From: Candidatus Limnocylindria bacterium
Lineage (GTDB): Bacteria > Chloroflexota > Limnocylindria > QHBO01
DNA length: 64,000 nucleotides
Direction of reading: 5' to 3'
Assembly: GCA_035708065.1 (NCBI GenBank)
Contig: DASSTC010000016.1
Location: 12,773-76,772 of the forward strand
Under the pieces are notes generated by a model. The model did no database searches and was not told the origin of the DNA. It saw nothing but the letters and a program-made list of their open reading frames with translations. The position numbers were made by a program, and so were the translations under genes. Every line of letters starts with the position of its first letter. Positions within the stretch are counted from its first letter, which is position 1. Positions 770 to 64,000 of this stretch are shown piece after piece.

Positions 770-1006
770 ATGTGCAGAAGCATCAAGACCCTGCGTGACG
801 GAGCCGAGCCGGTCACCGACGAGGAGATCACCGCGGCGGCACTCCAGTACGTCCGAAAAGTCAGCGGCTACCGGCAGCCGAGCCGCGCCAACGCCGACGC
901 CTTCAACGACGCAGTGGCCGAAGTGGCGGCCGCGTCACGCCGGTTGCTCGACGCCGTGATCGCTACCCATCCAGGCCGCAGCCGGACCGATGCGCACGCC
1001 CACTGA
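770..1006 (+). CDS. DUF2277 domain protein
   Basis: 78 aa. The N-terminus [11 protein letters not shown]...[14 protein letters not shown] matches my memory of the DUF2277 family. Confidence 0.8.
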
Positions 1007-2222
1007 CCCTGCGCGCACGCCCGTCGTCGTCGACGGGCTGCGCACCGCCTTCGGCCGATACGGCGGAGCGCTGGCCGGGGTTCGTCCAGATGACATGGCG
1101 GCGCACGTGATCCGTGCACTCGTCGACCGGACCGGGGTCGACCCGGCGCAGATCGACGACGTGATCCTCGGCGCGGCGAACCAGGCGGGCGAGGACAACC
1201 GCAACGGCGCCCGCATGGCCTTGCTGCTGGCCGGGTTGCCGATCGACGTGCCGGGCCAGACGGTGAACCGCCTGTGCGGCAGTGGCCTGCAGGCAGTCGT
1301 CAGCGCGGCGCATGCGGTCGCCTTCGGCGACGGATCCGTCTTCGTAGCCGGCGGTGCCGAGTCGATGTCCCGCGCGCCGTTCGTCATGGCCAAGCCGTCC
1401 GCCGCGTTCCCCCGCGGCGAGCAGACGCTGTATGACACCACCCTCGGCTGGCGCTTCACGAACCCGCGCCTGGCCGATGCCCACTACCCGTACTCCATGG
1501 GCGAGACCGCCGAGAACGTCGTCGAGCGCTGCGGCGTCTCGCGCGAGGACCAGGACGCGTTCGCCTGGCAGTCACAGCAGCGCTGGGCCGCAGCCGATGC
1601 CGCCGGGCGCTTCGCCGACGAGATCATCCCCATCGAGGTGCCGTCCGGCCGCCGTGGCGAGACCCGCACGTTGGAGCGCGACGAGCACCCACGACCGGAA
1701 ACGACGCTCGAGGACCTGGCCCGGCTGAAGCCGGCGTTCAAGCGCGACGCGTCGGGCTCGGTGACTGCCGGCAACTCCTCGGGCATCAACGACGGCGCCG
1801 CCGCGCTGCTCGTCACGTCCGAGGCACGCGCACGCGAGCTTGGCCTGCGCCCGATGGCGCGGCTCGTCTCGTCCGGCGTCGCCGGTGTCGACCCGGCGAC
1901 GATGGGCCTCGGCCCCATCCCCGCTTCACGGCTCGCGCTCGAGCGAGCGGGCCTCAGCGTCGACGACATGGACCTCGTCGAGCTGAATGAGGCGTTCGCC
2001 GCGCAGGCGATTCCGGTCATGCGCGAGCTTGGCCTGGATCCGGAGACGACCAACGTGAACGGAGGCGCGATCGCCATCGGGCATCCGCTGGGCGCCTCGG
2101 GTGCTCGCCTCGCGACGACGCTGCTCCACGAGATGCGCCGACGCGGCGCGCGGTACGGGCTGGCCACGATGTGCATCGGTGTCGGACAGGGCATCGCTGC
2201 CGTCTTTGAATCGGTCGAGTAA
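990..2222 (+). CDS. Acetyl-CoA C-acyltransferase (thiolase)
   Basis: 410 aa with thiolase hallmarks: [11 protein letters not shown] (active-site Cys), [28 protein letters not shown]. Overlaps the upstream gene by 17 nt. Confidence 0.93.
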
Positions 2223-2313
2223 CGGGATGACGGAGCCCGAGCCGGGGATCGTCTTCAGCGGCGAGGCCGACGTGAGCAGCGCGCCGCGCAGCCGGCGGTA
2301 GTCGTCCCGGGGT

Positions 2314-3177
2314 CTACCGCGGGGTCGTCACCACCGCGTCCTCACGCATCACCACCACCCGCGTTCGACCGGTCTTGCCTTTGAGCGCGAGCTCGCGTCG
2401 CTCGAGACTGTCCAGGCTCAACCCGGCTTCGGTCATCGCCGCCAGCGTCACCAGGAGCTCGCCGGCCGCCGCAGCCGCCGATAACCGCGCGGTCACGTTC
2501 ACGATGTCGCCGAGCGCGGTGAACTCGACGTGCTCATCGGTGCCCACTGCCCCGACGTATGCGATCCCCGCGTTCACCCCGATGCCGATCGGAACGCTCC
2601 GGTGTGCGTCCCGGCCACCGGTCGCCGCCAGCAGCTCGAGTCCGGCCCGCACCGCCTCGCCGGCCGGTGGGCCATCGGTCAGCGAGGGCAGGAAGATCCC
2701 GATCACCTCGTCACCGACGAACTTGTCGACGAACGCGTCGTGTGCCACCAGGATGCCGTACGACGTCTGGTAGAAGCGATCGAGCAGCTGGCGGAACTCG
2801 GCCGGACGCATTCCCTCGGCGAGGGCCGTCGAGTTTCGGACGTCGGCGAACAGCAGCGCGCAATCGGTTTCTGCGCCCGCGCGCGTTCGATACAGCGCGG
2901 CGAAGCATCCACGGCAGTACTTGGGGTTTCCCGGCCACGGCCCGAGGTTGATCGCGCGCATGGCGGCGCCGCCGATGCCGCCGAACGGGCGGTGGCACAT
3001 CTTGCAGCGCGGCGCGCTCGGCATCGAACGCCAGATCCGTCGCAACCGCTTCTGGCGCTTGCCGCAAAGCTCTGCGGCCGCCGCACGCTCATCCACCGAG
3101 CCATTGTGGTCGGCGGCGGCAAGTCCCAGACTCGGCCTCATGGATACGAGGATCACCTTCATCGGTTCGTTCCGCAT
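2314..3177 (-). CDS. Adenylate/guanylate cyclase domain protein with N-terminal Zn-ribbon
   Basis: Class III cyclase core (LLFADVRNSTALAE...FVGDEVIGIF...GIGVNAGIAYVG) follows CxxC...CxxC (RCKMCHRPF...YCRGCF). The start is uncertain; alternative Met codons are at 3162, 3141 and 3024. Confidence 0.8.
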   Translation of the reverse strand: MRNEPMKVILVSMRPSLGLAAADHNGSVDERAAAAELCGKRQKRLRRIWRSMPSAPRCKMCHRPFGGIGGAAMRAINLGPWPGNPKYCRGCFAALYRTRAGAETDCALLFADVRNSTALAEGMRPAEFRQLLDRFYQTSYGILVAHDAFVDKFVGDEVIGIFLPSLTDGPPAGEAVRAGLELLAATGGRDAHRSVPIGIGVNAGIAYVGAVGTDEHVEFTALGDIVNVTARLSAAAAAGELLVTLAAMTEAGLSLDSLERRELALKGKTGRTRVVVMREDAVVTTPR

Positions 3178-3499
3178 CCCTGACTACGACGCCTGGCTGC
3201 CCGCCATGCAGGGGATGACACGCTTCGTGGCCGAACGCGTTCCGGGAGTCCTGTCGTTCGATGCCTATGTCGACGAGGGTCGCAGCCGCGGCACGGTCGT
3301 CTACGTCCACCCTGACGCCGACTCGCTGGACGAGCATCTGTCGGCCGCGGCAGACCAGATTCGTGTCGGCAGCGCCATGGTGGAGGTCACCGCCATCCGG
3401 ATCCTCGGCACACCTCACCAGGCGACGGTCGACAGGTTGCGGGCGTCCGGGGCGCCGGTCGAAGTCGACGAGCGCGTCGACGGGTTCGCCAAAAGGTAA
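3140..3499 (+). CDS. ABM (antibiotic-biosynthesis-monooxygenase-like) / Dabb-fold small protein
   Basis: 119 aa from ATG 3140 (MDTRITFIGSFRIPDYDAW...VVYVHPDADSLDEHL). The upstream part of ORF 2921..3499 is antisense to the cyclase and was trimmed. Confidence 0.6.
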   Translation: MDTRITFIGSFRIPDYDAWLPAMQGMTRFVAERVPGVLSFDAYVDEGRSRGTVVYVHPDADSLDEHLSAAADQIRVGSAMVEVTAIRILGTPHQATVDRLRASGAPVEVDERVDGFAKR

Positions 3500-3507
3500 C
3501 CCGGCGC

Positions 3508-4731
3508 TTGTCCGACGTCGCCCTCATCTTCGCGATCCAGGCGGTCCGCGCCGCGCTGTACGGCTTCGGCAGCATTCTGATCGGCGCCTCTCTGGCGCAG
3601 AGCGGCCTGGACGCCGCGGCCGTCGGACTCGTCTTCACGGCGATGCTGGTCGGCATGGCGGTGTCCTCCCTGGCGGTCGGACGTTGGGGTGAGCGGCTGG
3701 GCCGGCGGCGTGCCTACGTTGTGCTCCTCGCGGTCATGGGCGTGGCCGGCGCCCTCTTCGCCCTCACGGACAGCGTTCCACTGCTCCTGCTCGCCGCGCT
3801 GACCGGCTGCCTCTCGACCGATCCGAACGAGTCCGGCCCGATCACCACGCTCGAGCAGGCGATGCTGGCCGGCACTCCGCCGACCGAACGCGCCCGCGTC
3901 TACGGCCGCTACAACGCCCTGGCGTATCTGGCCGGGGCGGTCGGCGCGCTGCTGGCGGGCGGGCCGGCAGGGCTGCGCAACCTCATCCCGGCATTGCCGC
4001 CCGACCAGCGCTGGCTGCTCGTGCTGCCGCTCGGCGCGGTCGCCTGCGTGGTTCTCGCCGCGCACCTGTCGCCCGCTGCGGAGGTCGCACCCTCGAGGTC
4101 GCCGGTTGCGATGCCCGCCGGCGGACTGCAGCGCTCGCGCGGGATCGTGTTTCGCCTGTCGGGCCTCTTCGCGCTCGACGCGTTCGCCGGTGGGTTCGTC
4201 GTCCAGGCGTTCATGGTCTTCTGGTTCAGCCGCCAGTTCGGCGTCAACAGCGACGTCATGGGGCTCGTCTTCTTCGGGGTCGGTCTGCTGCAGGCTGCCT
4301 CGTCGATCGCCGCTGCGCGCGTTGCGGCGCGCATCGGGCTGCTGAACACGATGGTCTTCACCCACCTGCCGTCGAACGTGTTCCTGGCGGTCATCCCGTT
4401 CGCACCGTCGCTGCCGCTCGCGATCCTGTTCCTGCTGGCGCGATCCGCGCTGTCGCAGATGGACGTGCCGACCCGCCAGGCGTACGTCGCGGCCATGGTC
4501 GACCCCGAGGAGCGGACGGCGGCGGCGGCATACACCAACGCCTCGCGCTACGTGGCCCGGCCGGTCGGTCCGGCGCTGGCGTCGGCGGCGATGACCGTGA
4601 CCGTCGGGCTGCCGTTCGTGATCGCCGGCGGGTTGAAGGTCGTCTACGACCTGCTGCTGCTGGGCACGTTCCGCGGCGTCGAGCTGCCGGAGGGAGCTGG
4701 CGCGGGAGGTGGCGCTTCCCGACTGGGCTGA
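3508..4731 (+). CDS. MFS transporter
   Basis: 407 aa with about 12 hydrophobic helices. The loop motif GRWGERLGRRR after TM2 is typical of MFS. TTG start. Confidence 0.85.
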   Translation: MSDVALIFAIQAVRAALYGFGSILIGASLAQSGLDAAAVGLVFTAMLVGMAVSSLAVGRWGERLGRRRAYVVLLAVMGVAGALFALTDSVPLLLLAALTGCLSTDPNESGPITTLEQAMLAGTPPTERARVYGRYNALAYLAGAVGALLAGGPAGLRNLIPALPPDQRWLLVLPLGAVACVVLAAHLSPAAEVAPSRSPVAMPAGGLQRSRGIVFRLSGLFALDAFAGGFVVQAFMVFWFSRQFGVNSDVMGLVFFGVGLLQAASSIAAARVAARIGLLNTMVFTHLPSNVFLAVIPFAPSLPLAILFLLARSALSQMDVPTRQAYVAAMVDPEERTAAAAYTNASRYVARPVGPALASAAMTVTVGLPFVIAGGLKVVYDLLLLGTFRGVELPEGAGAGGGASRLG

Positions 4732-4911
4732 TGCGCACCCGGAGCGCAATGGCTCGCCGCAGCTGCGTCGAGCGCGCATTTGTCGCTGCTGTGCGCGGTA
4801 TCTGCCTCGGGGCACCCCCGCGCGGCAGGTTCTCAGCTCCGCGGAGCGTGGCGACCGGTCGTCAGAGCCATCCCGGCGGTGTTAGCGCGCAGATCCGCGA
4901 CATTTGACGCT

Positions 4912-5349
4912 TCAAGCGCCCGCGGTGCTCGGCCCCAGCGCCCACGAAGTCCAGTGCTCGATGCTCAGAACCATCGCCGCGCCGAACGGTGTCGACCAGG
5001 TCCGGTACTGCTCGTACTTCGCCTGGAGCAACCGGATCGTCAGCTCGCGCTCCGGCCCGTCCTCGACGATCCGCGCCGAGCCGGCGACGCGCACCCACCA
5101 GAGCCGATCCCAGTCCTCGTCGTACGCATCGGCCAGCAACGAGACCGCCGGATTCGCGCGGATGTTGCGAAATCGCAGCAGGTCCAGGGCGTCCTTGGGC
5201 TTGGGATCGGCGATGGAATAGAGACGGTCACCCTCGAGCGCGAAGACGATCGGCACGACGTGCGGCCGGCCATCGGTCCGGACGGTGGCGAGGTACGCCA
5301 CGCGCGATGCGGCGAGGCGACGGCGTGCCTCCGCGGCCGTGAGGCGCAT
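4912..5349 (-). CDS. PPOX-class F420-dependent oxidoreductase (pyridoxamine 5'-phosphate oxidase family)
   Basis: 145 aa. The pattern VAYLATVRTDGRPHVVPIVFAL...LWWVRVAGSARIV is typical of PPOX/F420 split-barrel proteins. Lies 9 nt downstream of the preceding gene. Confidence 0.85.
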   Translation of the reverse strand: MRLTAAEARRRLAASRVAYLATVRTDGRPHVVPIVFALEGDRLYSIADPKPKDALDLLRFRNIRANPAVSLLADAYDEDWDRLWWVRVAGSARIVEDGPERELTIRLLQAKYEQYRTWSTPFGAAMVLSIEHWTSWALGPSTAGA

Positions 5350-5358
5350 CGGTGCGGG

Positions 5359-6348
5359 CTAGGAGAGCTTCAGGCGGGGAAGCACCTTCTCGGCGAAGGT
5401 CGCGATGAACGTCGGCTGGTCGCGCCCGACGTTGTGCAGGTAGATCTCGTCGAAGCCCATGTCGACGAAGTTCTGCAGCTGCTCGACGTGCGCGTCGAGG
5501 TCGGCGCTGATCAGCATCCGGTTCTTGAAGTCCTTGAGCTGCACCAGCTTCGCCATGTTGGCGAAGTCCTCCGGGTTCTTGATGTCCTGCTTCGGGAATG
5601 GCATGCCGCCGTTCGGCCACTCGAGGACCGCCTGCTCCTCGGCCTCGGCCTGCGTCGGCGCCCAGGAGACGTGCACCTGCAGCTGCGTCTTCATGGCCGA
5701 TGCGTCCTTGCCCGCCTCCGCCGCTCCCTCGCGGAACTTGTCCCACAGCATGTTGATCTTCTCGTCGGCGGCCCCGACGGTGATGATCCCGTCGGCGTAC
5801 TTGCCGGTGCGCTTGGCGTTGACCGGGCCAGCGGTCGCCACGTAGACCGGCACCGGCTGCTCCGGCCGGGTGTACAGCTTCGCCGACTCGAGCGTGAAGT
5901 AGGTGCCCTGATGCTTGACGACCTTGCCGGTGAACAGCTTGTTGATGACCTCGATCGCCTCGAACATCATCGCGCTGCGCACGCCGACCTCCGGCCAGTT
6001 CGGGCCGATGACGTGCTCGTTGAGTGCCTCGCCGGCGCCGAGCCCCAGCCAGAATCGCCCGGGATACATCGCGCCCAGCGTGGCGGCGGCATGCGCGATG
6101 ACCGCGGGGTGGTACCGAAATCCGGGACAGGTGACCGCGGTGCCGAACGGCAGGCTGGTGCGCTCGCCCAGCGCGCCCATGAAGCTCCACGCGAAGGCGG
6201 CGTTGCCCTGCTGCGGCGTCCACGGGTGGAAGTGCTCGCTCACCTGGAAACCGGCGTCGAATCCGGCAGATTCCGCATGGGCGCACCAGTCGAGCAGGTC
6301 GGTCGGGTGGAACTGCTCGAGCATGGCCGCGTAACCGATCTTGGTCAT
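5359..6348 (-). CDS. F420-dependent LLM oxidoreductase, glucose-6-phosphate-dehydrogenase (FGD) family
   Basis: 329 aa. MTKIGYAAMLEQFHP...SEHFHPW...GLGAGEALNEH are luciferase-like / FGD-family signatures. SD GAGGGACGG lies upstream. Confidence 0.9.
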   Translation of the reverse strand: MTKIGYAAMLEQFHPTDLLDWCAHAESAGFDAGFQVSEHFHPWTPQQGNAAFAWSFMGALGERTSLPFGTAVTCPGFRYHPAVIAHAAATLGAMYPGRFWLGLGAGEALNEHVIGPNWPEVGVRSAMMFEAIEVINKLFTGKVVKHQGTYFTLESAKLYTRPEQPVPVYVATAGPVNAKRTGKYADGIITVGAADEKINMLWDKFREGAAEAGKDASAMKTQLQVHVSWAPTQAEAEEQAVLEWPNGGMPFPKQDIKNPEDFANMAKLVQLKDFKNRMLISADLDAHVEQLQNFVDMGFDEIYLHNVGRDQPTFIATFAEKVLPRLKLS

Positions 6349-6363
6349 CCGTCCCTCGTCTGC

Positions 6364-6380
6364 GTAGGCTTACAGCCTAC
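6364..6380. promoter_or_regulatory. 17-bp perfect palindrome GTAGGCT-TAC-AGCCTAC in a divergent promoter gap (candidate operator)
   Basis: Read directly: 6364-6370 is the reverse complement of 6374-6380. It sits in the 64-nt gap between the divergent genes at 6348(-) and 6413(+). Confidence 0.35.
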
Positions 6381-6412
6381 CGGCTTCTCAGGTGGACCGA
6401 TGAGGAGGCGTC

Positions 6413-7477
6413 GTGAAGCTAGGGCGACTCATCACGGCGGTGGACGCGCACGCGGGCGGCGAGCCCGGCCGGGTGATCACCGGCGGCGTGCTCGACGTTT
6501 CCGGCGCGACGATGTTCGACAAGATGGTGCACCTGCGCGAGCACGGCGACTCGCTTCGTCGGCTGATGTTGCGCGAGCCGCGCGGCTACCCGGCGCTGTG
6601 CTGCAACCTCATCCTCCCGGCGACGCATCCGGAGGCCGATGCGGGCTTCGTGATCATGGAGCAGGCGGAGTATCCGCCGATGTCCGGGTCGAACACGATC
6701 TGCACCGTCACCGTTCTGCTCGAGACGGGGATGCTGCCGATGCTCGAGCCTGAGACGGTGCTGATCCTGGAGGCGCCGGCCGGGCTGATTCGCGTCCGTG
6801 CAGCGTGCGCCGACGGCAAGGTCACCGGCGTCACGTTCGAGAACGTGCCGGCCTTTGCCGTTCATCTCGGCGTGCCGGTCGAGGTGCCGGAGGTGGGCAC
6901 CGTTGCCGTCGACGTTGCGTGGGGCGGGATGTTCTACGCCATCGCCGAGGCGGCGCCATTGGGCTTTGCGATCACGCCGGACGAGGGCCGCGACCTCGTG
7001 CGCATCGGCGAGATGATCAAGGCGGCGACCCGCGAGCAGTACCCGGTGCGCCACCCGGACAACGACAGGATCGAGGGCGTCTCGATCATGCAGTTCTCGG
7101 GGCCGCCATCGGTCGACGGCGCCGACATGAAGAACACCGTCGTCGTCTCGTCGGGGGCGTTCGACTGGGAGCGGCCGTCGACCTGGACCGGCGTCCTCGA
7201 TCGCTCGCCGTGCGGGACCGGCACCTGCGCCCGGATGGCGACGCTGCACGCCCGCGGGCAGCTGGGGATCGGGCAGCCGTTCGTCCACGAGGGGATCCTC
7301 GGGACGACGTGGACGGGTCGGCTGCTGCGCGAGGCGCGCGTCGGCGAGTACGCGGCGGTCGTGCCCGAGCTGACCGGCGCCGCGTGGATCACGGGGATTG
7401 CCTCGTACGTCGTCGACGCCGAGGATCCCTTCCCCGAGGGCTTCACCGTCGGGGATCTCTGGGCGAGCGGCGACTAG
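6413..7477 (+). CDS. Proline racemase superfamily protein (hydroxyproline epimerase/dehydratase-like)
   Basis: 354 aa, GTG start with GAGGAGG SD. Has the DRSPCGTG motif (second catalytic Cys). The first catalytic position reads PMSGSNTI, so Ser appears where racemases carry MCGH. Confidence 0.9.
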   Translation: MKLGRLITAVDAHAGGEPGRVITGGVLDVSGATMFDKMVHLREHGDSLRRLMLREPRGYPALCCNLILPATHPEADAGFVIMEQAEYPPMSGSNTICTVTVLLETGMLPMLEPETVLILEAPAGLIRVRAACADGKVTGVTFENVPAFAVHLGVPVEVPEVGTVAVDVAWGGMFYAIAEAAPLGFAITPDEGRDLVRIGEMIKAATREQYPVRHPDNDRIEGVSIMQFSGPPSVDGADMKNTVVVSSGAFDWERPSTWTGVLDRSPCGTGTCARMATLHARGQLGIGQPFVHEGILGTTWTGRLLREARVGEYAAVVPELTGAAWITGIASYVVDAEDPFPEGFTVGDLWASGD

Positions 7478-7574
7478 TCGTTCCACGCGTTCTGGCTCGG
7501 CGGCGCATGCACCAGAGGCATGCCAGCTGGCGCAACGGCGCCTCCCCGCGACCGACATTGCGCCCGGTGCGACA

Positions 7575-8525: not shown

Positions 8526-8531
8526 GGAAAC

Positions 8532-8553
8532 GGGCCGGCGTCGTCGCCGGCCC
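8532..8553. terminator. GC hairpin between convergent genes (bidirectional terminator candidate)
   Basis: GGGCCGGCG-tcgt-CGCCGGCCC forms a perfect 9-bp stem and lies between stop codons at 8525(+) and 8579(-). There is no clear U-tract. Confidence 0.45.
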
Positions 8554-8578
8554 GCATCGGTCAAGCCCGGCTGACGGC

Positions 8579-54033: not shown

Positions 54034-54130
54034 CTTTCCGGCCCCATGTGACTGGGACGGCGGTGAAGGGACCGCCGGCCGCTCATCCTCGTCGGACGGC
54101 TCGCTCCTTCGACGGGTCGAGTGGTGGCCG

Positions 54131-55024: not shown

Positions 55025-55059
55025 GCTCGGCGCAAACGGGTCTGCGTCATGCGGAACGG

Positions 55060-56072
<1,013 letters not shown>

Positions 56073-56076
<4 letters not shown>

Positions 56077-57842
56077 GGCTGCTCCGTCGGTTCGAGGCGT
56101 GAGAAGTAGTCGCGCACGAAGTCCTTCAGCGTGACCGGCACCTGTTGCCGGTCGAGCTGGTTGTTGGCGAAATTGCGGAAGAGATCGAAGACGGACCGAT
56201 ACGGCACGACCGACTGGTTATCCAGGCCGATGCCGTTGCCGCCGCCGTTCTGGGTCGGGCCGCCGTTGCCACCCTGCCCGGCGATGTAGCTCGGGTCGCC
56301 GGGATTGCCGAGGCGGTTGATTGGGGCGAAGAGCTTGTCGTCGCCATTCGGTGCGTCGGGCTTGTTGCCCTGCGAGGGCCCGTTGAAGCTCCCGGTCCGC
56401 AGGCCGCCGCCCGGGATGCGGTGCACCTGGGTACCGCCGCCGCCGCCCGGCTGATTGCCGGTGTTGTTGCCCTGGCCAGGCTGGGTGCCTTGGCCGGGCT
56501 GGTTGCCCTGGCCGGGCGCGCCGCTGGCACCGGGCGCCGGCTGGCCGCTTCCGCCGGGCGAGGGCTGGCCGGGCGAACCCGGTGCCGGTTGGCCCGATGC
56601 CCCCGGCTGCGGTTGGCCGGACGAACCCGGCTGCGGCTGACCTGCGCGCGCGACCTGGCGCGCGCCGTCCGATAACGCGGACTGCGCAGCCGCCACGTCA
56701 CGCTGCAGCTGGCGTCGCTGCTCGGCGTTGCGCGTCGCATCCGCGGCACGGTTGAGCGCATCGCGTGCCGCCTGCTGGTCATGCTGATCGCCGGACTGCG
56801 CCGCGCGGTCCAGGGCATCGGCTGCTTCGCTGAGCTGTCGAGCCAGGTCGGGCTGTCCTGACGCCGCCTGCGATGCCTGCCGCAGCGCATCGGTCGTCGA
56901 TCTCGCCTCGGAGGGTGACTGGCTGCCGAGCTTGTTGGCGAGGTCCTCGAGGTCCTTGGCCGCCGCATCGGTCGTGCCCTCGGCATTGTTCTGGTCGTCA
57001 CCGGTCACCGCGCGGGAGATGGAGCGCGACAGCTGCGTGAGCTCGGCGTCCCTGGCTGCCGCCTGCGGGTCGGCCAGCTTCGCCAACTGCTCCTGCACCG
57101 AACCGATGCGGGCCAGTGTTGCCTGCCGGTCATCGCCCTGTTCGCGGAGCTGCCTGGCCAAACGACGCAGCTGCTCCACGAGCTTGTCGCGCTCGGGATC
57201 CTTCGTGTCGGCGCCCTTGCGCTCGGCGTCGTCCGCGACCTTCTCCACGCGCTCGGCGACCTGCCGGCTCGCCTCGCGCGCCGCGCGACGATCGGCCAGC
57301 ACGCCGTCCTGCGGATTCGGCCAGACGACGAGGACGAGCAGCAGCACCAGCGCGATGCCGGCGACCGATGCGGGCCGGCGCTCGAGCCGCGGTCGGAAGG
57401 CGCCCCGCAGGTCGACCTCGGCCAGACGCGCGCGAGCATCCGCCAGCTGGCGCGGCACGAGATCGAGCTCGAGCTCGCGCTCTGTCGCGCCGCCGGATCC
57501 GATCAGCTCGAGCGCTGTGCCGAGGCGCTCGCGGAGCGCCAGCTCGTCATCGGCACGGTGGGCGGTCGCGACCAGCGACGGTCGCTGCAGCCAGCTCCAG
57601 GCGGCCCACGCCAGGATGACGGCGGCCACGACGGCGAGCATGAGCTGCGGCGCCCATTCGACCGCGATGCTGCGGGCCAGCAGCTGCACGCCGGCGAGCG
57701 CGATGAGCGCGGCCGCGGTCGCCCACCCACCACCGCGCAATGATCGCCGCAGCCAGAGCCGTCGCCGCAGGGCGGCCAGGCGTGTTGCGCTGTCGCGCCC
57801 GAGCCGATCGGTCACACGCCTGCCGTCCTGGCGGTCGGTCAT
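56073..57842 (-). CDS. Bitopic membrane protein with long coiled-coil and Q/G/P/N-rich low-complexity region (DUF4175-like?)
   Basis: 589 aa. TM helices are near residues 40-90 and 155-175. The middle is Ala/Arg/Asp/Gln-rich and helical. Carries a GQPxPG repeat. The C-terminus is VPVTLKDFVRDYFSRLEP. ATGA overlaps at both ends. Confidence 0.8.
56431..56645 (-). repeat. Coding low-complexity tandem repeat (SGQPxPGx octapeptide-like, then GQGNQPGQGTQPGQGN)
   Basis: The minus-strand translation reads GQPQPGSSGQPQPGASGQPAPGSPGQPSPGGSGQPAPGASGAPGQGNQPGQGTQPGQGNNTGNQPGGGGG. Confidence 0.85.
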
Positions 57843-59032
57843 GCTTCCGCTTCCTCGATGCGTGGATCGCCGTCGCCGGCGACTTGTGTCGCGCTGGCGA
57901 CACGCGCGCCACGCTGACGGCGGAAGACGAAGCGCATCCCCGCGGGGAGGACCAGGCGCATCGAGATGAGGGTCAGCAGCACCGCGAGCAGCGCGAACGT
58001 CGCGGCGAAGCGCGGCCAGAAGTGGTCGTAACGGGTGTTGAAGCCGAACGCCGTGGCTCGGTCAGGGATGCGCGAGCCGGGGACCTGGCAGATCGCGCCG
58101 GCCGGACACGGATCGGAGCCCGGGACGGCGCACGGACCGTCGCCGCACAGGTCGGTTGCCGTCGTAGGCACCAGCGGGCTGCCCGTGCCGAACTGGCTGA
58201 CGAACGAGCTGAACGTACCCGGCACCGACTCGGTGTTGGCGACGACGTCTGCCATGGCGACCGCCGGGTTGACCCACATCAGCTGCTCGGGGGCGGTGCG
58301 CCGTTCACTGAACGGGCTCGAGGTGTCTCGATTGGCGAGCGCCGTCCAGAAGACGAAGACGAGCAGGGTGCCGATGGTGAAGGCAAGCATCGTCGAATAC
58401 GTCAGGACGGTCGAGGCCTGCGTGCGCTTCACGAAGGCTGAGAAAAAGAGCCCGATCGTGCCGAAGCCGAGCGCTGCGCTGAGCAGGACGACGAGCTGGC
58501 GCAGCAGATCACCGATCGTCACGCCGCCGTACATGAACACCAGTGCGCTCAACGGGATGCCGGCCAGGATCATGAGCAGGAGGAAGGCAAGTGCCGCGAG
58601 GAGCTTGCCGACCACGATGGCGCCCGGTCGCATCGGTGTGCTGATCAGCAGGTCGAGCGTCTGCTTCTCGCGCTCGAGCGAGATGGCGCCGGCGGTGAAT
58701 GCCGGGGCGATGAAGCAGACCAGCAGCAGCTGGAACATCGACAGCGTGGCGAAGATCGCCTGACCGATGCTGGCCGATGCGTTGGCCGCATTGAGACCGC
58801 CGAAGCCCCCGAATGCACCGCCGGCCACCTGCGAGCGCGCCTGCGGCCCCATCACCGTGTATACGCCGTAGGCGATCAGGGCCAGGATCGCCAGGTAGAT
58901 GGTGAGCACCACGAACGCGCGCCGGCCGCGGAATCGCGAGCGCAGCTCCTTGACCATGATCGTGGCGACCGCCGAGGCGAACTCATGGAAGCGGCCGCGC
59001 TCGAGCGGCGCGGCAACGGCAGCGGCGCTCAC
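57839..59032 (-). CDS. ABC-2 type transporter permease with Cys-rich extracytoplasmic loop
   Basis: 397 aa and multi-TM. The loop DLCGDGPCAVPGSDPCPAGAICQ has 4 Cys. GTG overlaps the ATPase stop (GTGA). Confidence 0.85.
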   Translation of the reverse strand: MSAAAVAAPLERGRFHEFASAVATIMVKELRSRFRGRRAFVVLTIYLAILALIAYGVYTVMGPQARSQVAGGAFGGFGGLNAANASASIGQAIFATLSMFQLLLVCFIAPAFTAGAISLEREKQTLDLLISTPMRPGAIVVGKLLAALAFLLLMILAGIPLSALVFMYGGVTIGDLLRQLVVLLSAALGFGTIGLFFSAFVKRTQASTVLTYSTMLAFTIGTLLVFVFWTALANRDTSSPFSERRTAPEQLMWVNPAVAMADVVANTESVPGTFSSFVSQFGTGSPLVPTTATDLCGDGPCAVPGSDPCPAGAICQVPGSRIPDRATAFGFNTRYDHFWPRFAATFALLAVLLTLISMRLVLPAGMRFVFRRQRGARVASATQVAGDGDPRIEEAEA

Positions 59033-59994
59033 GCGGCCTCCTCGGCGCCGGCGTCCTGTCCGGTGACCTTCAGGAAGATCTCCTCGAGGCCGCTGGTCGC
59101 CTGCGCGAAGCTGCTCAGCCGGTGGCCGGCGGCGACGATGTCGCGCAGCAGCGCCGCCTGATCATCGGGCGTGCCGTCGAACGGCAGCTCGAGGCGCGTG
59201 ACTCCCGCGGCGGAGCCGTCGACCAGGATCTCGCCGATACGGCGGTCGGCCTCCAGCTTGGCGATCAGCGGCGCCGAGTCGGAGAGCACCTCGATCCTGA
59301 GGACGGCGCCCGCGCGCAGGGAGCGCTCGATCTCGTCGATGCTGCCCGAGCGCAGCAGCCGGCCGCGATCGATAATCCCGACGCCGGTGCACATCTCGCC
59401 GAGCTCCGGCAGGATGTGGCTGCTGACGAGGATCGTCTTGCCCATCGAGCGCAGCTCGCGCAGGATCTCGCGCATCTCCACCCGTGCTCGAGGGTCCAGG
59501 CCGGAGGCCGGCTCGTCGAGGATCAGCAGCGCCGGGTCGTGAACCAGCGTGTGGGCCAGGCACAGCCGCTGACGCATGCCGCGCGACAGGCTCTCGACGT
59601 AGGCGTCGCGCTTCTCGCCGAGGGCCACGATCTCGAGCAGCTCGCCGATCATCGCCGTGCGCCGGGGGGCGGGGACGCCGTAGCAGCGGGCGAAGAAGTC
59701 CAGGTACTCCCAGACGCGCAGATCGTCGTAGACGCCGTAGAAGTCCGGCATGTAGCCGATGCGCCGCCGAACGCCGATCGGGTCGACATCGACCGGGATG
59801 CCGCACACCAGCGCCTCGCCGGCCGTCGGCGCGAGCAGCGTGGCCAGGATCTTCATCGTGGTCGTCTTGCCCGCGCCGTTCGGCCCGACCAGGCCGTAGA
59901 TCTCGCCCGGTCCGACGACCATGTCCACGCCGGCGACCGCCATCTGGTCGTCGTAGCGCTTGGTGAGCCCACGGGTCTCGATCACCGGGGTCAT
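59029..59994 (-). CDS. ABC transporter ATP-binding protein (ABC-2 type)
   Basis: 321 aa from ATG 59994 (ATGA overlap). Walker A GPNGAGKTT, LSRGMRQR, LILDEP. Confidence 0.93.
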   Translation of the reverse strand: MTPVIETRGLTKRYDDQMAVAGVDMVVGPGEIYGLVGPNGAGKTTTMKILATLLAPTAGEALVCGIPVDVDPIGVRRRIGYMPDFYGVYDDLRVWEYLDFFARCYGVPAPRRTAMIGELLEIVALGEKRDAYVESLSRGMRQRLCLAHTLVHDPALLILDEPASGLDPRARVEMREILRELRSMGKTILVSSHILPELGEMCTGVGIIDRGRLLRSGSIDEIERSLRAGAVLRIEVLSDSAPLIAKLEADRRIGEILVDGSAAGVTRLELPFDGTPDDQAALLRDIVAAGHRLSSFAQATSGLEEIFLKVTGQDAGAEEAA

Positions 59995-62411
59995 CGGACG
60001 AGCACTCCGGAGAGGCTGGCCGTGGCGAACACCGGCGTCTCGCCCTGATCGGCCGGCACCGAGTCGCCGACGATCCGCACCAGGATGCTGTCGCCCGGAC
60101 CGATGAACTCGCTCGGGTCGGGCAGCTCGAAGCGGCTCAGCGCATTCGGGTTGCCGAGCTCCACCCACGCGTCGTTCGCGACGTTGTAGGCGGACACGTG
60201 GTAGCCCGGCGGCAGCGGGTTGCTGGCGTTGAACTGGTTGAACATCACCGAACCCGGGTCGCCGGCGGTCAGGATCGCGGCGGACGAAGGATGCAGGCCG
60301 ACCGCCTGGAGCGGCAGGGAGATGCGGAACTCGACCATCCCGTTGCCGAGCAGCGTGCCGAAGTCCTGGTTGATCACGTCGCCATCGGTCGCCACCACGC
60401 TGACATGCAGCTCGGAGGGGGTGAGCTCGATCTTGCCTGGACCGAGCGTCGGCGTGCCGGCGACGACCTCGACGCCTTGGCTGAAACGCTGCACCTTCTG
60501 CCCGTCGATCTCGACGCTGACCGGCGACGCGTCGTCATGCCAGCCGATGACGTATGGCCCGGCGGCGTCCGCGGCACCGGGCTGCTCACCGAGCTTGCCG
60601 AAGCCGGCGCCGGCGCCGACCAGCGTGTCGATCACCTGCCGCCGTGTCTGGATCTGCAGCTGGCGATCGGTCCCGGTGAACTCGCCGCTTTGGAAGCCGT
60701 ACACCCGATCGGACGCCTGTGAGCCGTCGAACGGGCTGATCGACAGGTTGAACTCGTGCGACGCGCCCGGCGCCAGATCCCCGATCTTCGTGCCACCACC
60801 GGCGGCGATCACCGCGACGTCGGTCAACGGCTCCTCGGAGACGTTCGTCACGCGGCCGGTGATCTGCCGGCCTTCGTGGTGCCAGGTCACGTCGAGCGAC
60901 GGCCGGTAGGCGATCGTCGTCTCGGCGCGGATGCCCTGCAGGCCGAAGACGCTCACCGACAGGCCACGCAGGTGCGACGGATCGCCCTGCTCGGTGGGGT
61001 GCTCGACCGGCTGACCGTTGCCGTCGAAGAAATCTGCCAGGGACGAGATCAGTGCGTCGCCGCGCACCGTGAGGTCGTACGTCGAACGGCTGGGCGAGAA
61101 GACGCCGGCATAGGTCGAGACCGATGCCGCCGACGCTCCGCTCGTGGTCCGCACCACGGACACCTCGTTGACGATGATGTCGCTGCCCTTCAGCGACGAG
61201 CCGATGCCGTACGACCCGGCCGAGAACGCGACGACCAGCGCCGGAGCGGTGACCCACGCCAGCTCGCGACGGTCCCATCGACGCAGGACGAAGTAGCTGG
61301 CCGGGCCGATGAGGACGATATATGCGCCGATGACGAGGAGCAGCAGCTCGGCCGGCGGGACCTGCAGCGACGGCAGGTTGGCGAGCGCCTGCGACATCAG
61401 CGCGTCGATCTGCTGCTGCTGCATCATCCCGCCGCCGGTTAGTTGCTGCTGCAGCCGGTCGTCGGGCAGCAGGCGCGACCAGAACGGCGCGGCGCCGGGC
61501 CAGTCGCGGAACGGACGAGTGGCCAGATCGACGCCGATGAACGTGACGCGTCCGGCGCCGCTCGATCGCGTGGTGAGCAACGGGTGGTGCTCGGGTGCCA
61601 GCGCGAACGCGTCGGAGCGCACCGTGCCGGCCGCCGCGGTTCCCAGCGTGGCGTCCGCCGGCAAGTCACTGCCGCTCCACGTCGCGAGCGCGTCGAACGG
61701 CACGTTGTCCGCCGAGCTCAGGTCGGTGACCGGCAGCAGGTCGCCGAATGCGGCGGTGCGCGCCTGCCAGTCCGGGCCACCGATCACGATCAGGTCGCCG
61801 CCGGCGGCGATCCAGCGTTCGAGCGCCCGCCGCTGCGCCTCGGTCAGCGTGCTGCTGTCGCCGGCCCACACGATCGTCTCGAGGCCTGCCAGCGGCTCAG
61901 GCCGTTCGGGGAGATCGGCTACCGCAAGCCCAACCGGCTCCGGCAGCCCGTCGCCCCGTGTCGTGACCTGCGCGCGCAGGTTGCCCTGTGCATCGCCGAC
62001 GAGCGCGACGTTCGCGCCGGAACGTTCGAGGACCTTGACCTCGGCGCTGCCGGTGGCGAGCGATGTGCCGGCATCGGTCTGGAAGTGCACTTCGACCTGG
62101 CGGGTGAAGGCGCCCGGGCGCAGGAACAGGGTCACCTGCTTGCGAGCGCCGGCCGGCAGCTCAACGGCGCGGCGCACCGGGCCGTCCTGGCCACTCGCCT
62201 CGAGGCGGCCGTTGACCGGCGCGCCGTCGTTGGTCAGCGAGACGGTCAGTCCCAGCCAGCCGCCGTCCTCGAAGCGGCCCGCGACGAGAGGCCGAACCTG
62301 GAGCTGGATCGGGTCCGCCGCAAGCGCGACACCGGCGATGGCGGGCAGCAGGAAGAGGGCGCAGGCAACGGCTGCGACGCATCGCGGCAGGGCTCGGGAC
62401 CGGACCGTCAT
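59991..62411 (-). CDS. Large exported/membrane protein with GATase1-ThuA-like (DUF4350/GldG-like) segment and two central TM helices
   Basis: 806 aa from ATG 62411 (GAGGGGAG upstream). Signal peptide ALPRCVAAVACALFLLPAIAGVALA. IVWAGDSSTLTEAQRRALERWIAAGGDLIVIGGPDW. TM pair lies around residues 375-420. Confidence 0.8.
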   Translation of the reverse strand: MTVRSRALPRCVAAVACALFLLPAIAGVALAADPIQLQVRPLVAGRFEDGGWLGLTVSLTNDGAPVNGRLEASGQDGPVRRAVELPAGARKQVTLFLRPGAFTRQVEVHFQTDAGTSLATGSAEVKVLERSGANVALVGDAQGNLRAQVTTRGDGLPEPVGLAVADLPERPEPLAGLETIVWAGDSSTLTEAQRRALERWIAAGGDLIVIGGPDWQARTAAFGDLLPVTDLSSADNVPFDALATWSGSDLPADATLGTAAAGTVRSDAFALAPEHHPLLTTRSSGAGRVTFIGVDLATRPFRDWPGAAPFWSRLLPDDRLQQQLTGGGMMQQQQIDALMSQALANLPSLQVPPAELLLLVIGAYIVLIGPASYFVLRRWDRRELAWVTAPALVVAFSAGSYGIGSSLKGSDIIVNEVSVVRTTSGASAASVSTYAGVFSPSRSTYDLTVRGDALISSLADFFDGNGQPVEHPTEQGDPSHLRGLSVSVFGLQGIRAETTIAYRPSLDVTWHHEGRQITGRVTNVSEEPLTDVAVIAAGGGTKIGDLAPGASHEFNLSISPFDGSQASDRVYGFQSGEFTGTDRQLQIQTRRQVIDTLVGAGAGFGKLGEQPGAADAAGPYVIGWHDDASPVSVEIDGQKVQRFSQGVEVVAGTPTLGPGKIELTPSELHVSVVATDGDVINQDFGTLLGNGMVEFRISLPLQAVGLHPSSAAILTAGDPGSVMFNQFNASNPLPPGYHVSAYNVANDAWVELGNPNALSRFELPDPSEFIGPGDSILVRIVGDSVPADQGETPVFATASLSGVLVR

Positions 62412-62457
62412 CTCCCCTCGTCGAGCGGATGGTGCCACGCTTGACGCGTGACGCAGC

Positions 62458-62467
62458 CAACCGGTTG
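62458..62467. promoter_or_regulatory. 10-bp perfect palindrome CAACCGGTTG in the divergent gap between the 13-kb operon and the GAF kinase
   Basis: Read directly. It is flanked by a TGACGC-G-TGACGC direct repeat (62442-62454). Confidence 0.25.
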
Positions 62468-62527
62468 CAGTAGCGTGAGTGTAGGGGCGGCGTCCAGTCG
62501 TTGTTGACCAGCAAGGCGGAGGGGCGG

Positions 62528-64000
62528 ATGGGACCAGGCGCGGCCAGGCGTTCCGATCTCGAGCGTCACCTCGAGCGCCAGATGCGCACCCAGGAGCGTC
62601 AGCTGATCGTGGTGCGCGCCGCGGTGGTGGCCGTCGCGCTGGTGGTGGTGCTCGTCTTCCGCCAGCAGCTGACCGCCTTCACGCTGATCCTGGGTCTGCT
62701 GGGCGCGGTTGCCGCATACGACATCGCGCTGGCGCTGCTGCTCAACCGCTTCCCGGCGCGCGAGGTCGGGATCGTGGCCACCGCGCTCGACATGGCGGCG
62801 GTCACCATCGCGATCTACGCCGAGCCCGGTGCGCTCGACGCCTATCTCTTCTACATCCCGGTGATCCTCGGCGCGGCACTGCGCTTCGGCCTGGGCGCCT
62901 CGCTGTGGTCCTCGCTGCTCATGGCCGCGATGTACGCCGCCGTCGTGCTGCTGGGTCCCGGGCCACGCAACCTCGTCGTGGAGCTGCTGCCGGTGCGGGT
63001 CGCGTACCTCGTCGGGATCGGCGTGGCCGCTGGGCTGTTCGCGCGGGTGGTCATCGGTCGAGCGGGTGAGAACGCCCGGTTGCAGTCACGGCTCGACGAG
63101 GAGGAGCGTGAGGCGGCGCAGTTGCGAGAGCGCGACGTGCTCTCCGCCATGGCCCGTGACTTCTCCGCGTCGCCGGAGCGCGATGCGACGGTGCGCGCGA
63201 TCCTGGACGCCGCCGCGCCGCTGCTCGGCAGCGTCACCGTGCTCTACCTCGTTGACGGCGACCGGCTGGCGCCCGCTGGTGTGGAGGGAATCGAGCCGGA
63301 GCTCGTCGAGGCCATGCGCGCGCACGTTACCGGTCGCACGCTGCGCATCGGCGAGGGGATCGCCGGACGGGTGGCCGCGACGGCGACGGCGATCGTCGCT
63401 GGCGGGGAAGCACCGGTCCCCGCCTTCCCCGGCGATCCGGACGCGGTGACGGCGCTTGACCTGCGCTCGGTCGTGGCCGTGCCGATGCTCAGCCGGGGCG
63501 CGGTCCAGGGCATCCTGTTCAGCGGGTCACGGTCCGCCGCCGCACTCGCCGACGGCGAGCGACGCCTGGCCGAGGCGATCGCCGAGCGCGCCGGTCCGGC
63601 GCTCGAGAATGCCGCGCTGTGGACCGACCTGCAGGACCAGGTCGTCCGCGAGCAGCAGGCCCAGCACATCAAGGACGATTTCCTGTCGATCGTCAGTCAC
63701 GAGCTGCGCACGCCGCTCACCAGCATCCAGGGCTACTCGCAGCTGCTGGAGGGTCGCCTGCGGGGGTCGACCGATGCGAACGCCAAGGAGCGCTCGCATT
63801 TGCGCATCATCCGCTCACAGGTCGCGCGGATGCGGCGGCTGGTCGATGACCTGCTCGACGTCAGCAGGATCGACAAGCGCGGCGGCGTGAGCATCGAGCC
63901 TGCCGCGTTCGACCTGGCCGAGGAGCTGCGCGAGATCGTGGCACGCACCGAGCGGGAGCATCCGAATCGGAAGGTGTCGCTCGACGCGCCGCCTTCGATC
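62528..64000 (+). CDS. Membrane GAF-domain sensor histidine kinase, 3' end beyond the window (not in ORF track)
   Basis: ATG 62528 with GGAGG upstream, and the frame stays open to base 64000 (491 codons). About 5 TM helices, a GAF-like region (IGEGIAGRVA...SVVAVPM), and HisKA H-box FLSIVSHELRTPLTSI. Confidence 0.88.
   Translation, partial: MGPGAARRSDLERHLERQMRTQERQLIVVRAAVVAVALVVVLVFRQQLTAFTLILGLLGAVAAYDIALALLLNRFPAREVGIVATALDMAAVTIAIYAEPGALDAYLFYIPVILGAALRFGLGASLWSSLLMAAMYAAVVLLGPGPRNLVVELLPVRVAYLVGIGVAAGLFARVVIGRAGENARLQSRLDEEEREAAQLRERDVLSAMARDFSASPERDATVRAILDAAAPLLGSVTVLYLVDGDRLAPAGVEGIEPELVEAMRAHVTGRTLRIGEGIAGRVAATATAIVAGGEAPVPAFPGDPDAVTALDLRSVVAVPMLSRGAVQGILFSGSRSAAALADGERRLAEAIAERAGPALENAALWTDLQDQVVREQQAQHIKDDFLSIVSHELRTPLTSIQGYSQLLEGRLRGSTDANAKERSHLRIIRSQVARMRRLVDDLLDVSRIDKRGGVSIEPAAFDLAEELREIVARTEREHPNRKVSLDAPPSI

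Follow-up and report, generated by a model that had tools for sequence, protein, structure and literature searches.

A short DNA word that is hyper-abundant and restricted to one lineage is present in an uncultured Candidatus Limnocylindria bacterium (Chloroflexota) from soil. In the stretch analysed, 64,000 nt in length (hereafter, the window), GACCGATGC and its complement occur 51 times by exact matching, 26 on the plus strand and 25 on the minus strand, i.e., one copy per 1255 bp when both strands are pooled. All 49 copies listed in an earlier note on this DNA are exact matches; since plus-strand copies at 11266 and 33950 had been overlooked there, the total is 51, and the massive over-representation that it claimed, about 1 per 1.3 kb, is slightly stronger than stated. 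The 8-mer GACCGATG is found 66 times (51 copies with C as the ninth base and 15 without), GACCGATG(C) being encountered about once per kilobase, with copies on both strands, within and between genes. Eight copies of the 12-mer CCAGACCGATGC were counted, the number given in the note. The strict core of the word is CCGAT; positions 3–7 are strict, and positions 1, 2, 8, and 9 permit variants that are themselves enriched. GACCGATG is the clade-wide form, and (CCA)GACCGATGC is preferred in the window genome. No paper describing the GACCGATG/GACCGATGC word was found in the literature.

Against the 51 copies observed, five null models predicted 2.4 to 18.5. Dinucleotide shuffles gave 2.35 ± 1.53 copies, 51 being reached in none of 100 shuffles, while 4.2 were expected from a Markov-3 model and 6.4 from codon-order shuffling. 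Codon-shuffled and Markov-5 nulls, which the earlier note had proposed as a check, also yielded far fewer copies: 9.9 for synonymous-codon shuffling inside genes, a value that contains 6 copies outside gene calls and untouched by the shuffle, and 18.5 for the Markov-5 model, which was trained on the window itself and therefore absorbed part of the motif into its expectation.

The window contains 53 genes, all of them ordinary housekeeping genes, and no mobile-element genes were identified among its gene calls by Pfam, which backs most of the calls. These calls span 92% of the window, and 45 of the 51 copies lie wholly inside them; the copies use five of the six reading frames as well as intergenic DNA (Table 1). 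The coding copies are distributed 22/9/8/5/1 over the five frames, T-D-A accounting for 22 of 45, and are thus not collapsed onto one peptide frame, an outcome that the note had set out as a test. The frames that it had named were matched (here T-D-A, R-P-M, G/R/S-I-G, A-S-V, and H-R-S), and the copies that it had placed in non-coding DNA, at 8554, 22629, and 43421, are intergenic. The word overrides codon preference and inflates the tripeptides that it encodes. Thr-Asp-Ala is spelled ACC-GAT-GCx in 24 of 25 cases, whereas GAT is a minority Asp codon (23%), and this tripeptide occurs 25 times versus 8.4 expected from amino-acid composition, i.e., about three-fold. Likewise, GCA is used in 8 of 18 A-S-V tripeptides and represents 7% of Ala codons. 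Since the copies are frame-independent and also intergenic and codon usage is distorted, the cause acts on the DNA and not on a peptide, as the note had argued, and peptide selection was rejected.

Copy spacing is random (CV 1.01), and the position of copies within genes is uniform. There is no strand polarity: the two orientations are about equally common, as claimed, and the summed chi-square is 7.2 on 12 df for 12 independent loci, none of which is skewed. A polar motif of the Chi/KOPS type was therefore rejected, in agreement with the earlier argument from strand symmetry.

Table 1. Exact matches to GACCGATGC in the window, with frame and context taken from our own gene calls; the last line gives GACCGATG 8-mers.
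Positions	Strand	Context	Relatives
985..993	+	gene boundary; its own ATG is the predicted start of thiolase gene 990-2222	
8329..8337	-	antisense to gene 7575-8525, G-I-G	kept in L059
8554..8562	-	intergenic, adjoins GC-rich hairpin 8531-8552	
10448..10456	+	sense, T-D-A	L059 carries CACCGACGC
11266..11274	+	sense, R-P-M; overlooked earlier	kept in L059
13777..13785	-	sense, T-D-A	
14180..14188	+	sense, T-D-A	
14342..14350	+	sense, T-D-A	
16008..16016	-	antisense, G-I-G	
16685..16693	-	sense, R-P-M	kept in L059
17883..17891	-	antisense, R-I-G	kept in L059
19347..19355	+	sense, T-D-A	kept in L059
19665..19673	-	antisense, H-R-S; extended 12-mer form	
22529..22537	+	intergenic	
22629..22637	-	intergenic; 12-mer form	kept in L059/L214, L202, L215
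24988..24996	+	sense, T-D-A	
25060..25068	+	sense, T-D-A	gain in window lineage
25998..26006	-	antisense, R-I-G	
26529..26537	+	sense, R-P-M	gain in window lineage
27486..27494	+	sense, T-D-A	gain in window+L202 lineage
27770..27778	-	antisense, A-S-V	common to L202, L204, L210, L214
30533..30541	+	sense, T-D-A	common to clade
31722..31730	-	antisense, A-S-V; 12-mer form	common to clade
33139..33147	-	antisense, G-I-G	
33950..33958	+	intergenic; overlooked earlier	window-specific
34907..34915	-	antisense, G-I-G	
35229..35237	+	sense, T-D-A	in 6/6 genomes compared
35653..35661	+	sense, T-D-A	in 6/6 genomes compared
36909..36917	+	antisense, over final codons of gene 36906-38204	mostly GGCCGATGC
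36958..36966	-	sense, T-D-A	
38848..38856	-	sense, R-P-M	
39735..39743	+	antisense, R-I-G	
40548..40556	+	antisense, A-S-V	
41817..41825	+	antisense, G-I-G	
42015..42023	-	sense, T-D-A	
43421..43429	-	intergenic, inside 600-bp spacer 43145-43745; 12-mer form	
44618..44626	+	sense, T-D-A; 12-mer form	
45654..45662	-	sense, R-P-M; 12-mer form	
46888..46896	+	antisense, A-S-V; 12-mer form	
51821..51829	+	antisense, A-S-V	
53390..53398	-	sense, T-D-A	kept in L109
53462..53470	-	sense, T-D-A	kept in L109
53528..53536	-	sense, T-D-A	kept in L109
55451..55459	-	sense, T-D-A	
56887..56895	-	sense, T-D-A	
56965..56973	-	sense, T-D-A	
57363..57371	+	antisense, A-S-V	
58762..58770	+	antisense, S-I-G	
61119..61127	+	antisense, A-S-V	
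62071..62079	-	sense, T-D-A; 12-mer form	
63769..63777	+	sense, T-D-A	
2673..63059 (span)	starts 2673-, 5271-, 6395+, 7107-, 11427-, 11711-, 21455-, 23965+, 33266-, 36613+, 47057+, 52129+, 60098+, 60383-, 63052-	15 GACCGATG 8-mers, ninth base not C	

The enrichment is common to the whole clade, and sister lineages are without it. GACCGATG reaches about 10 copies per 10 kb in the related clade, whereas other relatives, covered over 1.1 Mb and of the same GC content, have 0.8 per 10 kb. The density here is 40-fold theirs for the 9-mer and 13-fold for the 8-mer. Because the enrichment recurs in relatives, including their non-syntenic genes, it is not confined to the window, a possibility raised in the earlier note. 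In one branch of the clade the ninth base is less constrained, a dialect-like difference (p = 1e-4 for clade restriction together with this variant). In orthologous alignments, copies are gained and lost through single-base substitutions, not insertions, at otherwise orthologous positions, the window lineage having gained about 5 copies and lost about 3 in approximately 20 kb since the L204 split. Many copy sites are common to genomes that are 15–19% diverged. Conservation in related genomes, which the note had recommended checking, exceeds the control (8/14 versus 0.28, 6/13 versus 0.21, and 3/9 versus 0.125; Fisher combined p = 0.004), but selection for some chromosomal function would predict both this conservation and the clade restriction just as well. 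Identity to L202 comprises blocks of 99–100% beside one block of 77–87%, which is evidence for frequent homologous recombination in the population. Separately, four window copies are all missing from this divergent recombined segment of L202, an observation that is neutral with regard to an uptake tag.

The turnover by substitution, the indifference to strand, frame, and coding status, the overriding of codon preference, and the clade-wide sharing show that some directional process acts on the DNA word itself. The best explanation, quite possible if tentative, is that the word is a self-DNA tag tied to natural transformation, accumulating by molecular drive like the USS of Pasteurellaceae (AAGTGCGGT / ACAAGCGGT) and the DUS of Neisseriaceae (GCCGTCTGAA and dialects); its status as an "uptake sequence" is a hypothesis. 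As a "self" tag during transformation, it would cause the fragments bearing it to be preferentially bound, taken up, or recombined, and near-consensus variants would be transmitted more often than lost, as modelled for USS and DUS. Protein function would filter the frames able to hold the word, and the relaxed ninth position of one branch may reflect a shift in the specificity of a putative receptor, e.g., a ComP-type pilin. To our knowledge, natural competence has never been demonstrated in Chloroflexota, and the uptake sequences found in the literature were described for Pasteurellaceae and Neisseriaceae only. A ComEC-type protein is present in every surveyed Chloroflexi strain (PMC6299819), recombination correlates with ComEC loci in abundant soil bacteria (PMC7305173), and HIP1 promotes the transformation of a cyanobacterium (bioRxiv 2024.09.10.611283).

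The resemblance to USS and DUS, proposed earlier from density and frame behaviour, holds and extends further. All are non-palindromic words of 8–12 bp found about once per kilobase, with 51–66 copies per 64 kb here and 1471 USS in H. influenzae and 1892 DUS in N. meningitidis (PMC2817400). Equally common orientations, several frames plus intergenic copies, distorted codon usage, and inflated tripeptides are also shared, USS-encoded tripeptides being approximately doubled according to Findlay and Redfield (PMC2817400), as is a strict inner core with softer flanks (in the H. influenzae USS, four core bases are critical and the flanks are weaker; PMC3458573). Like USS and DUS, the word also arises by point mutation, is restricted to a lineage, and varies in a dialect-like way, for which the DUS dialects are a precedent (PMC3630211). 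Yet, the present word belongs to another phylum, is G+C-rich, and is unrelated in sequence. It also counts against a tag that the copies are approximately proportional to coding and non-coding DNA, with no clear intergenic excess, terminator-forming inverted pairs, or AT-tract flanks seen in the window, whereas USS and DUS show a relative excess in intergenic DNA (65%, 49%, and 34.5% lie within ORFs; PMC2817400).

A precedent as close as USS and DUS is HIP1 (GCGATCGC) of cyanobacteria, itself without a settled function. By analogy, each copy could be weakly selected for a chromosome-wide intracellular function with no uptake role, for instance as a binding site for an abundant nucleoid or structuring protein or as the target of an orphan methyltransferase, an explanation that we consider unlikely. 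Both are hyper-abundant octamer-scale words of Terrabacteria, though of different phyla, and both lie inside and between genes, here in near proportion; the excess falls in the HIP1 range of 15- to 300-fold, and HIP1 is similarly conserved between genomes beyond control, with no peptide- or RNA-level function (PMC5861425). However, the present word is non-palindromic, hence unlike a symmetric dimer or methylase site, and has no known methylase or other candidate protein, whereas HIP1 is a perfect palindrome with sites of two orphan methyltransferases. Its random spacing shows no order at the 64-kb scale; HIP1 is reportedly periodic at 10–90 kb, a range for which the 64-kb window is too short. 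Moreover, weak selection over approximately 3000 sites is hardly distinguishable from drive, and HIP1 itself is now experimentally linked to transformation (bioRxiv 2024.09.10.611283).

Distinctly unlikely is a non-polar recombination or repair signal, i.e., Chi-like modulation of a helicase-nuclease or recombinase, or a nuclease self-mark, with both orientations needed because two-ended breaks (e.g., from desiccation) dominate. Like Chi (RecBCD/AddAB) and KOPS/SRS (FtsK/SpoIIIE), the word is short, non-palindromic, and over-represented in core chromosomal genes, and the recombination evident in the L202 comparison would suit such a role. On the other hand, all characterised Chi and KOPS sequences that we know of are strongly co-oriented with replication, as opposed to the 26:25 ratio and 0/12 skewed loci here, and known Chi and KOPS sequences are over-represented just a few-fold, far below the present 13- to 40-fold excess. 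A partly Chi-like action has been proposed for HIP1 (bioRxiv 2024.09.10.611283).

A functionless, context-specific mutation or repair bias, such as deamination of methylated C (CCGACG to CCGATG) or very-short-patch-type (VSP) mismatch repair converting near-matches, appears improbable. The choice of T versus C is indeed shifted only in CCGA[T/C]G (3.0-fold versus 0.7- to 1.7-fold elsewhere), and GACCGACGC is almost missing, with 1 copy. Nevertheless, a single-site bias was rejected because relatives carry the C form at 0.7 per 10 kb, a pool that would have to be about 11 times larger to supply 8.0 copies of the word per 10 kb, and because gains occur at several different word positions. CCGACG is down by about 6 per 10 kb and CCGATG up by about 20, the T-D-A tripeptide is itself inflated, and the T or A one-off partners predicted to be depleted under VSP-type repair are not; we know of no precedent for a 9-bp non-palindromic repair specificity. 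Ordinary causes, namely chance, base or codon composition, a favoured peptide, or dispersed REP/MITE remnants, are scarcely credible: one frame does hold nearly half of the coding copies, but every null model falls short by 3- to 20-fold, the copies occupy five frames as well as intergenic DNA, and mobile-element remnants were rejected on account of flanks unrelated past about 3 bases, copies arising by substitution within conserved orthologous genes, and the lack of mobile-element genes in the window.

If the word is indeed a self-DNA tag, it may be a sign of sequence-selective gene exchange within a phylum without an earlier example, since its pattern is otherwise known from the Haemophilus and Neisseria tags and HIP1.

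The 64-kb window contains 51 copies of the word GACCGATGC or its reverse complement GCATCGGTC, of which 26 are on the + strand and 25 on the − strand. All the copy coordinates in the earlier note were correct, and two further copies had been overlooked. Across 100 dinucleotide shuffles of the window, the count was 2.35 ± 1.53 and never as high as 51. A Markov-3 null predicted 4.2 copies, a codon-order shuffle 6.4, and a synonymous-codon shuffle within each gene, which preserves the proteins and the per-gene codon usage, 9.9, a figure that includes 6 copies outside gene calls that this shuffle cannot touch. A Markov-5 null, trained on the window itself, predicted 18.5. The massive over-representation claimed in the earlier note holds against all of these nulls (51 observed versus 2.4 to 18.5), codon-shuffled and Markov-5 models included, and the excess of the word in the window is real. 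The G+C content is 70% throughout the window, and the excess over relatives is 13- to 40-fold. The longest stretch without the 9-mer still has four copies of the clade-wide 8-mer GACCGATG with another ninth base, and the syntenic part of L059, a locus from a related genome, is sparse too.

Among single-mismatch neighbors of the word, positions 3–7 (CCGAT) are near-invariant, and substitutions at positions 1, 2, 8, and 9 give variants that likewise exceed a codon-aware null. Under this null, GGCCGATGC is observed 24 times versus 12 expected and CACCGATGC 10 times versus 4, while GACCGACGC, in which Asp has its preferred codon, hardly occurs (1 versus 9.4). The 8-mer occurs 66 times in the window. 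The 12-mer CCAGACCGATGC forms a subset of 8 copies, the number given in the earlier note, which are found in five different frames and twice in intergenic DNA. Only about 9–12 bp of sequence are shared among the copies, and beyond CCA upstream the flanks carry little information. Since the flanks are unrelated beyond the 12-mer, the copies are not fragments of a longer dispersed element.

The 53 genes called by codon-usage score, most of them supported by Pfam, cover 92% of the window, and 45 of the 51 copies (88%) lie wholly within them. Sense copies encode T-D-A (22) or R-P-M (5), and antisense copies are read as G/R/S-I-G (9), A-S-V (8), or H-R-S (1). The other 6 copies are located outside gene calls or across a gene-call edge, so that the ~5 kb of non-coding DNA is at least as dense in the word as the coding DNA. 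With five frames used and these six copies, the frame independence and intergenic occurrence described in the earlier note are borne out. As many as 24 of the 25 Thr-Asp-Ala tripeptides are spelled ACC-GAT-GCx, although GAT accounts for just 23% of Asp codons, and 8 of the 18 Ala-Ser-Val tripeptides are spelled GCA-TCG-GTC, while GCA makes up 7% of Ala codons. The 25 occurrences of T-D-A in the window proteins compare with 8.4 from amino-acid composition, a threefold inflation. Thus, the word prevails over codon preference and has changed protein sequences, the same effect that Findlay and Redfield reported for uptake sequences (PMC2817400).

The ratio of sense to antisense copies (27:18) is not significant, the position of copies along genes is uniform, and 22 genes have no copy (Poisson expectation, 24.6). 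The spacing between copies (CV 1.01) is indistinguishable from random. Repeated protein domains were rejected as a source of close pairs (66–78 bp apart), the number of short gaps being near the Poisson expectation. The gene content is ordinary and includes thiolase, malic enzyme, aldehyde dehydrogenases, aminotransferases, ABC transporters, two-component systems, and MoxR/VWA (BatA-type) genes; gene calls and Pfam revealed no mobile-element or DNA-processing gene in the window. Scans of the window for Rfam families, tRNA genes, and tandem repeats gave no match to Rfam, no tRNA gene, and no relevant repeat. In two cases, the ATG within the word (GACCG-ATG) is a predicted start codon. An unusually long non-coding spacer, flanked by an ABC transporter operon and an acyl-CoA dehydrogenase gene, holds one motif copy and has no Rfam match.

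Coordinates of features in the window and of the spans aligned with loci from related genomes
Position	Feature	Remark
985–8329	Longest stretch without the 9-mer	7.3 kb
2673, 5271, 6395, 7107	8-mers with another ninth base	Within 985–8329
985–993	Word at predicted start codon	Thiolase, start at 990; may be an artefact of start choice
47057–47064	Word at predicted start codon	FG-GAP-like protein, start at 47062; may be an artefact of start choice
11266, 33950	Copies overlooked in the earlier note	
25060, 26529, 27486, 33950, 36909	Gains in the window lineage since the L204 split	About 5; parsimony on site table
24094, 27677, 28197	Losses in the window lineage since the L204 split	About 3; parsimony on site table
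35229, 35653	Examples of sites common to all genomes compared	
24500–26500	Block of 77–87% identity to L202	Flanked by 99–100% blocks
22660–22690	Recurrent string ACCGATACTCCCGC	Also L059, 21643; L028, 9371 and 15509
43145–43745	Non-coding spacer	600 bp
1–22.7 kb	Span aligned with L059	
39.4–54.3 kb	Span aligned with L109	
About 20–43 kb	Span aligned with L202, L204, L210, L214, and L215	

The best relatives of the malic enzyme encoded in the window are found in MAGs labelled Candidatus Limnocylindrales, Limnocylindria, or Chloroflexota, and the loci compared are pieces of about 20 kb. The copies in L028, L008, and L023 belong to genes without synteny to the window, so the enrichment is a property of the genomes and not of the window's gene set. 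A neighbor-joining tree of the malic enzyme groups the word-rich loci together, the clade limits being approximate because the tree is built on this single gene. The comparison with related genomes proposed in the earlier note therefore shows enrichment in a clade, and the excess is not confined to the window. The ninth base is C in 64–82% of the 8-mer copies in the window's sub-clade, but in only 35–38% in L028 plus L037 and L109 (background, 25%; Fisher p = 1e-4 between branches), which is a dialect-like difference.

Density of the word and of its 8-mer core in the window and in related loci (copies per 10 kb)
Locus	9-mer	8-mer
Window	8.0	10.3
L059 / L214 (same 1.16-Mb contig; nucleotide identity about 80% / 84%)	3.7 / 7.9	9.0
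L215 / L216	8.0 / 8.1	11.3 (L215)
L204–L209 (about 90% identity)	6.5–7.6	8.4 (L204)
L210	8.2	10.6
L202	4.2	
L109	4.0	10.7
L028 and L037	3.7 and 4.0	10.6
72 other related loci (1.1 Mb, same G+C)	0.2	0.8

No other word of comparable lineage-specific excess was found among 80 related loci. Weaker local excesses are present for GTCCGGAC in L034 (16 observed versus 2.0 expected) and CCACCGGG in L038 (18 versus 2.3). L065, from an Actinomycetota MAG (JBAVEY010000216.1), has 21 copies of CGCGATCGC in 21.7 kb, where 3.6 would be expected, and 32 of GCGATCGC; this is an excess of a HIP1-like palindrome in a non-cyanobacterial genome. Elevated counts of CGATCGCG are seen in L033 and L067 too. Across the window, GGGCCC (14 observed versus 72 expected) and CCCGGG (44 versus 115) are strongly under-represented relative to the synonymous-shuffle null, as if avoided on account of restriction systems, and CTCGAG is over-represented (204 versus 110). 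The recurrent string listed in the first table encodes the conserved N-terminus (M-A-L-Y-R-Y-S-R-W-D-G) of a VWA/Mb0984-like protein and is therefore a protein motif unrelated to the word. A metagenome scan for two copies 50–80 bp apart yielded, among the matches listed, mostly unrelated tandem repeats and arrays, L109 alone being useful, and a viral-contig scan with CCAGACCGATGCCG gave chance matches only, with background word density in their flanks.

In the alignments, copies are found at orthologous positions inside conserved genes, several of them in all genomes compared. Where a genome has no copy at an aligned site, it is one or a few substitutions away, often GAT versus GAC. The fraction of window copies conserved is 11/16 in L204, 8/14 in L210, 6/13 in L059, and 3/9 in L109, versus 0.46, 0.28, 0.21, and 0.125, respectively, for random aligned 9-mers, and conservation is above this control with p = 0.004 when three disjoint regions are combined. 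The window's identity to L202, its closest relative, is mosaic, a pattern seen in two independent assemblies (L202/L203), which indicates homologous recombination between diverged lineages. Within the divergent block, L202 is more diverged from the window than the more distant relative L204, and all four window motif copies are one-off variants in L202. This block indicates an imported recombinant segment.

These results show that a directional DNA-level process acts on an 8–9-bp word in a clade of Limnocylindria. To our knowledge, the full pattern is known only from the uptake-sequence drive of Pasteurellaceae (USS) and Neisseriaceae (DUS) and from the maintenance of HIP1, the hyper-abundant palindrome of cyanobacteria. 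USS and DUS are tied to natural transformation through biased uptake. HIP1 sites raise transformation efficiency (bioRxiv 2024.09.10.611283), ComEC-type proteins are found in every Chloroflexi strain surveyed (PMC6299819), and among abundant soil bacteria recombination correlates with ComEC loci (PMC7305173). For these reasons, we tentatively favor the reading that the word may be a self-DNA tag linked to natural transformation, whose copies would accumulate by molecular drive through a bias, which we infer, of uptake or recombination toward word-bearing DNA.

The likeness to uptake sequences drawn in the earlier note stands in part. As with USS and DUS, a hyper-abundant word of 8–12 bp occurs about once per kilobase, far above the expectation from composition, equally on both strands and without replication polarity. 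It is found in several frames and in non-coding DNA, with inflation of the encoded tripeptides; point substitutions at orthologous sites create and erase copies; and the word is confined to a lineage, with dialect-like differences between sub-lineages, here on a single-gene tree. In contrast, the relative excess of USS and DUS outside genes, the inverted terminator pairs of DUS, and the AT-rich flanking tracts of USS have no counterpart here, since the word lies mostly within the gene calls, has incidental close pairs only, and is devoid of such tracts. Phylum and sequence also differ; thus, the word resembles USS and DUS in pattern without belonging to either family by descent.

As an alternative to a transformation-linked tag, selection of a HIP1-like word for a role in the chromosome or in methylation is unlikely. 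The word shares with HIP1 its hyper-abundance and the conservation of sites between genomes above control. However, HIP1 is a perfect palindrome with methyltransferase sites, whereas GACCGATGC differs from its reverse complement; because it is not palindromic, the word is not a HIP. HIP1 is reported to be periodic over 10–90 kb; the spacing of the word is random at the local scale within the 64-kb window. Less probable still is an apolar recombination or self-recognition signal. Strand skew is absent in all 12 loci (summed chi-square 7.2 on 12 df). Chi and KOPS show strong co-orientation with replication and the word shows none, so polarity of this type is ruled out, and the argument from strand symmetry in the earlier note is upheld.

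A repair bias producing the word is very improbable. The near-absence of GACCGACGC prompted the idea of single-site deamination of CCGACG to CCGATG, and the T-versus-C shift is indeed confined to the CCGA[T/C]G context (3.0-fold versus 0.7- to 1.7-fold elsewhere). Yet GACCGACGC occurs in relatives at only 0.7 per 10 kb versus 8.0 per 10 kb for the word, a pool ~11-fold too small; the rise of CCGATG, about 20 per 10 kb, exceeds the fall of CCGACG, about 6; and gains are spread over several positions of the word in the site tables. A single-site mutation bias is therefore inadequate. Under VSP-type repair, the T or A one-off partners should be depleted, which is not the case. REP-, MITE-, or BIME-type elements, with usually structured, intergenic units of at least 20 bp spread by insertion, are ruled out by the short shared length, genic location, and origin by substitution of the word, and peptide selection, codon selection, and chance are ruled out by the null models and the use of many frames.

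A literature search with the 9-mer returned only primers and unrelated sequences and no paper reporting the word, and no work on uptake sequences or over-represented words came to light for Chloroflexi or Limnocylindria. In the literature found, sequence-specific DNA uptake is limited to two proteobacterial families. The word is rated a hyper-abundant genomic word in a new phylum, with a putative function. It is conceivable, if somewhat doubtful, that it represents the first uptake-type self-DNA tag outside Proteobacteria, with an uncultured soil Chloroflexota clade practicing sequence-selective transformation keyed to GACCGATG(C) in sub-lineage dialects. If so, the word could serve to recognize gene-exchange partners directly in metagenomes. 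Even if unrelated to transformation, it is a strong, clean sign of an unknown DNA-level force. The role of HIP1 in cyanobacteria has been in question for decades, and the word adds a separate case: a third, unrelated hyper-abundant word, found in an abundant uncultured soil lineage, whose gain and loss can be measured and which varies in a dialect-like way. Its existence suggests that tags spanning the whole genome play a more general part in how bacterial genomes evolve. Such tags also become open to study without cultivation, since their density and dialect can be charted from MAG to MAG, compared with gene content in search of a reader protein, and used to infer gene-flow barriers in soil populations.
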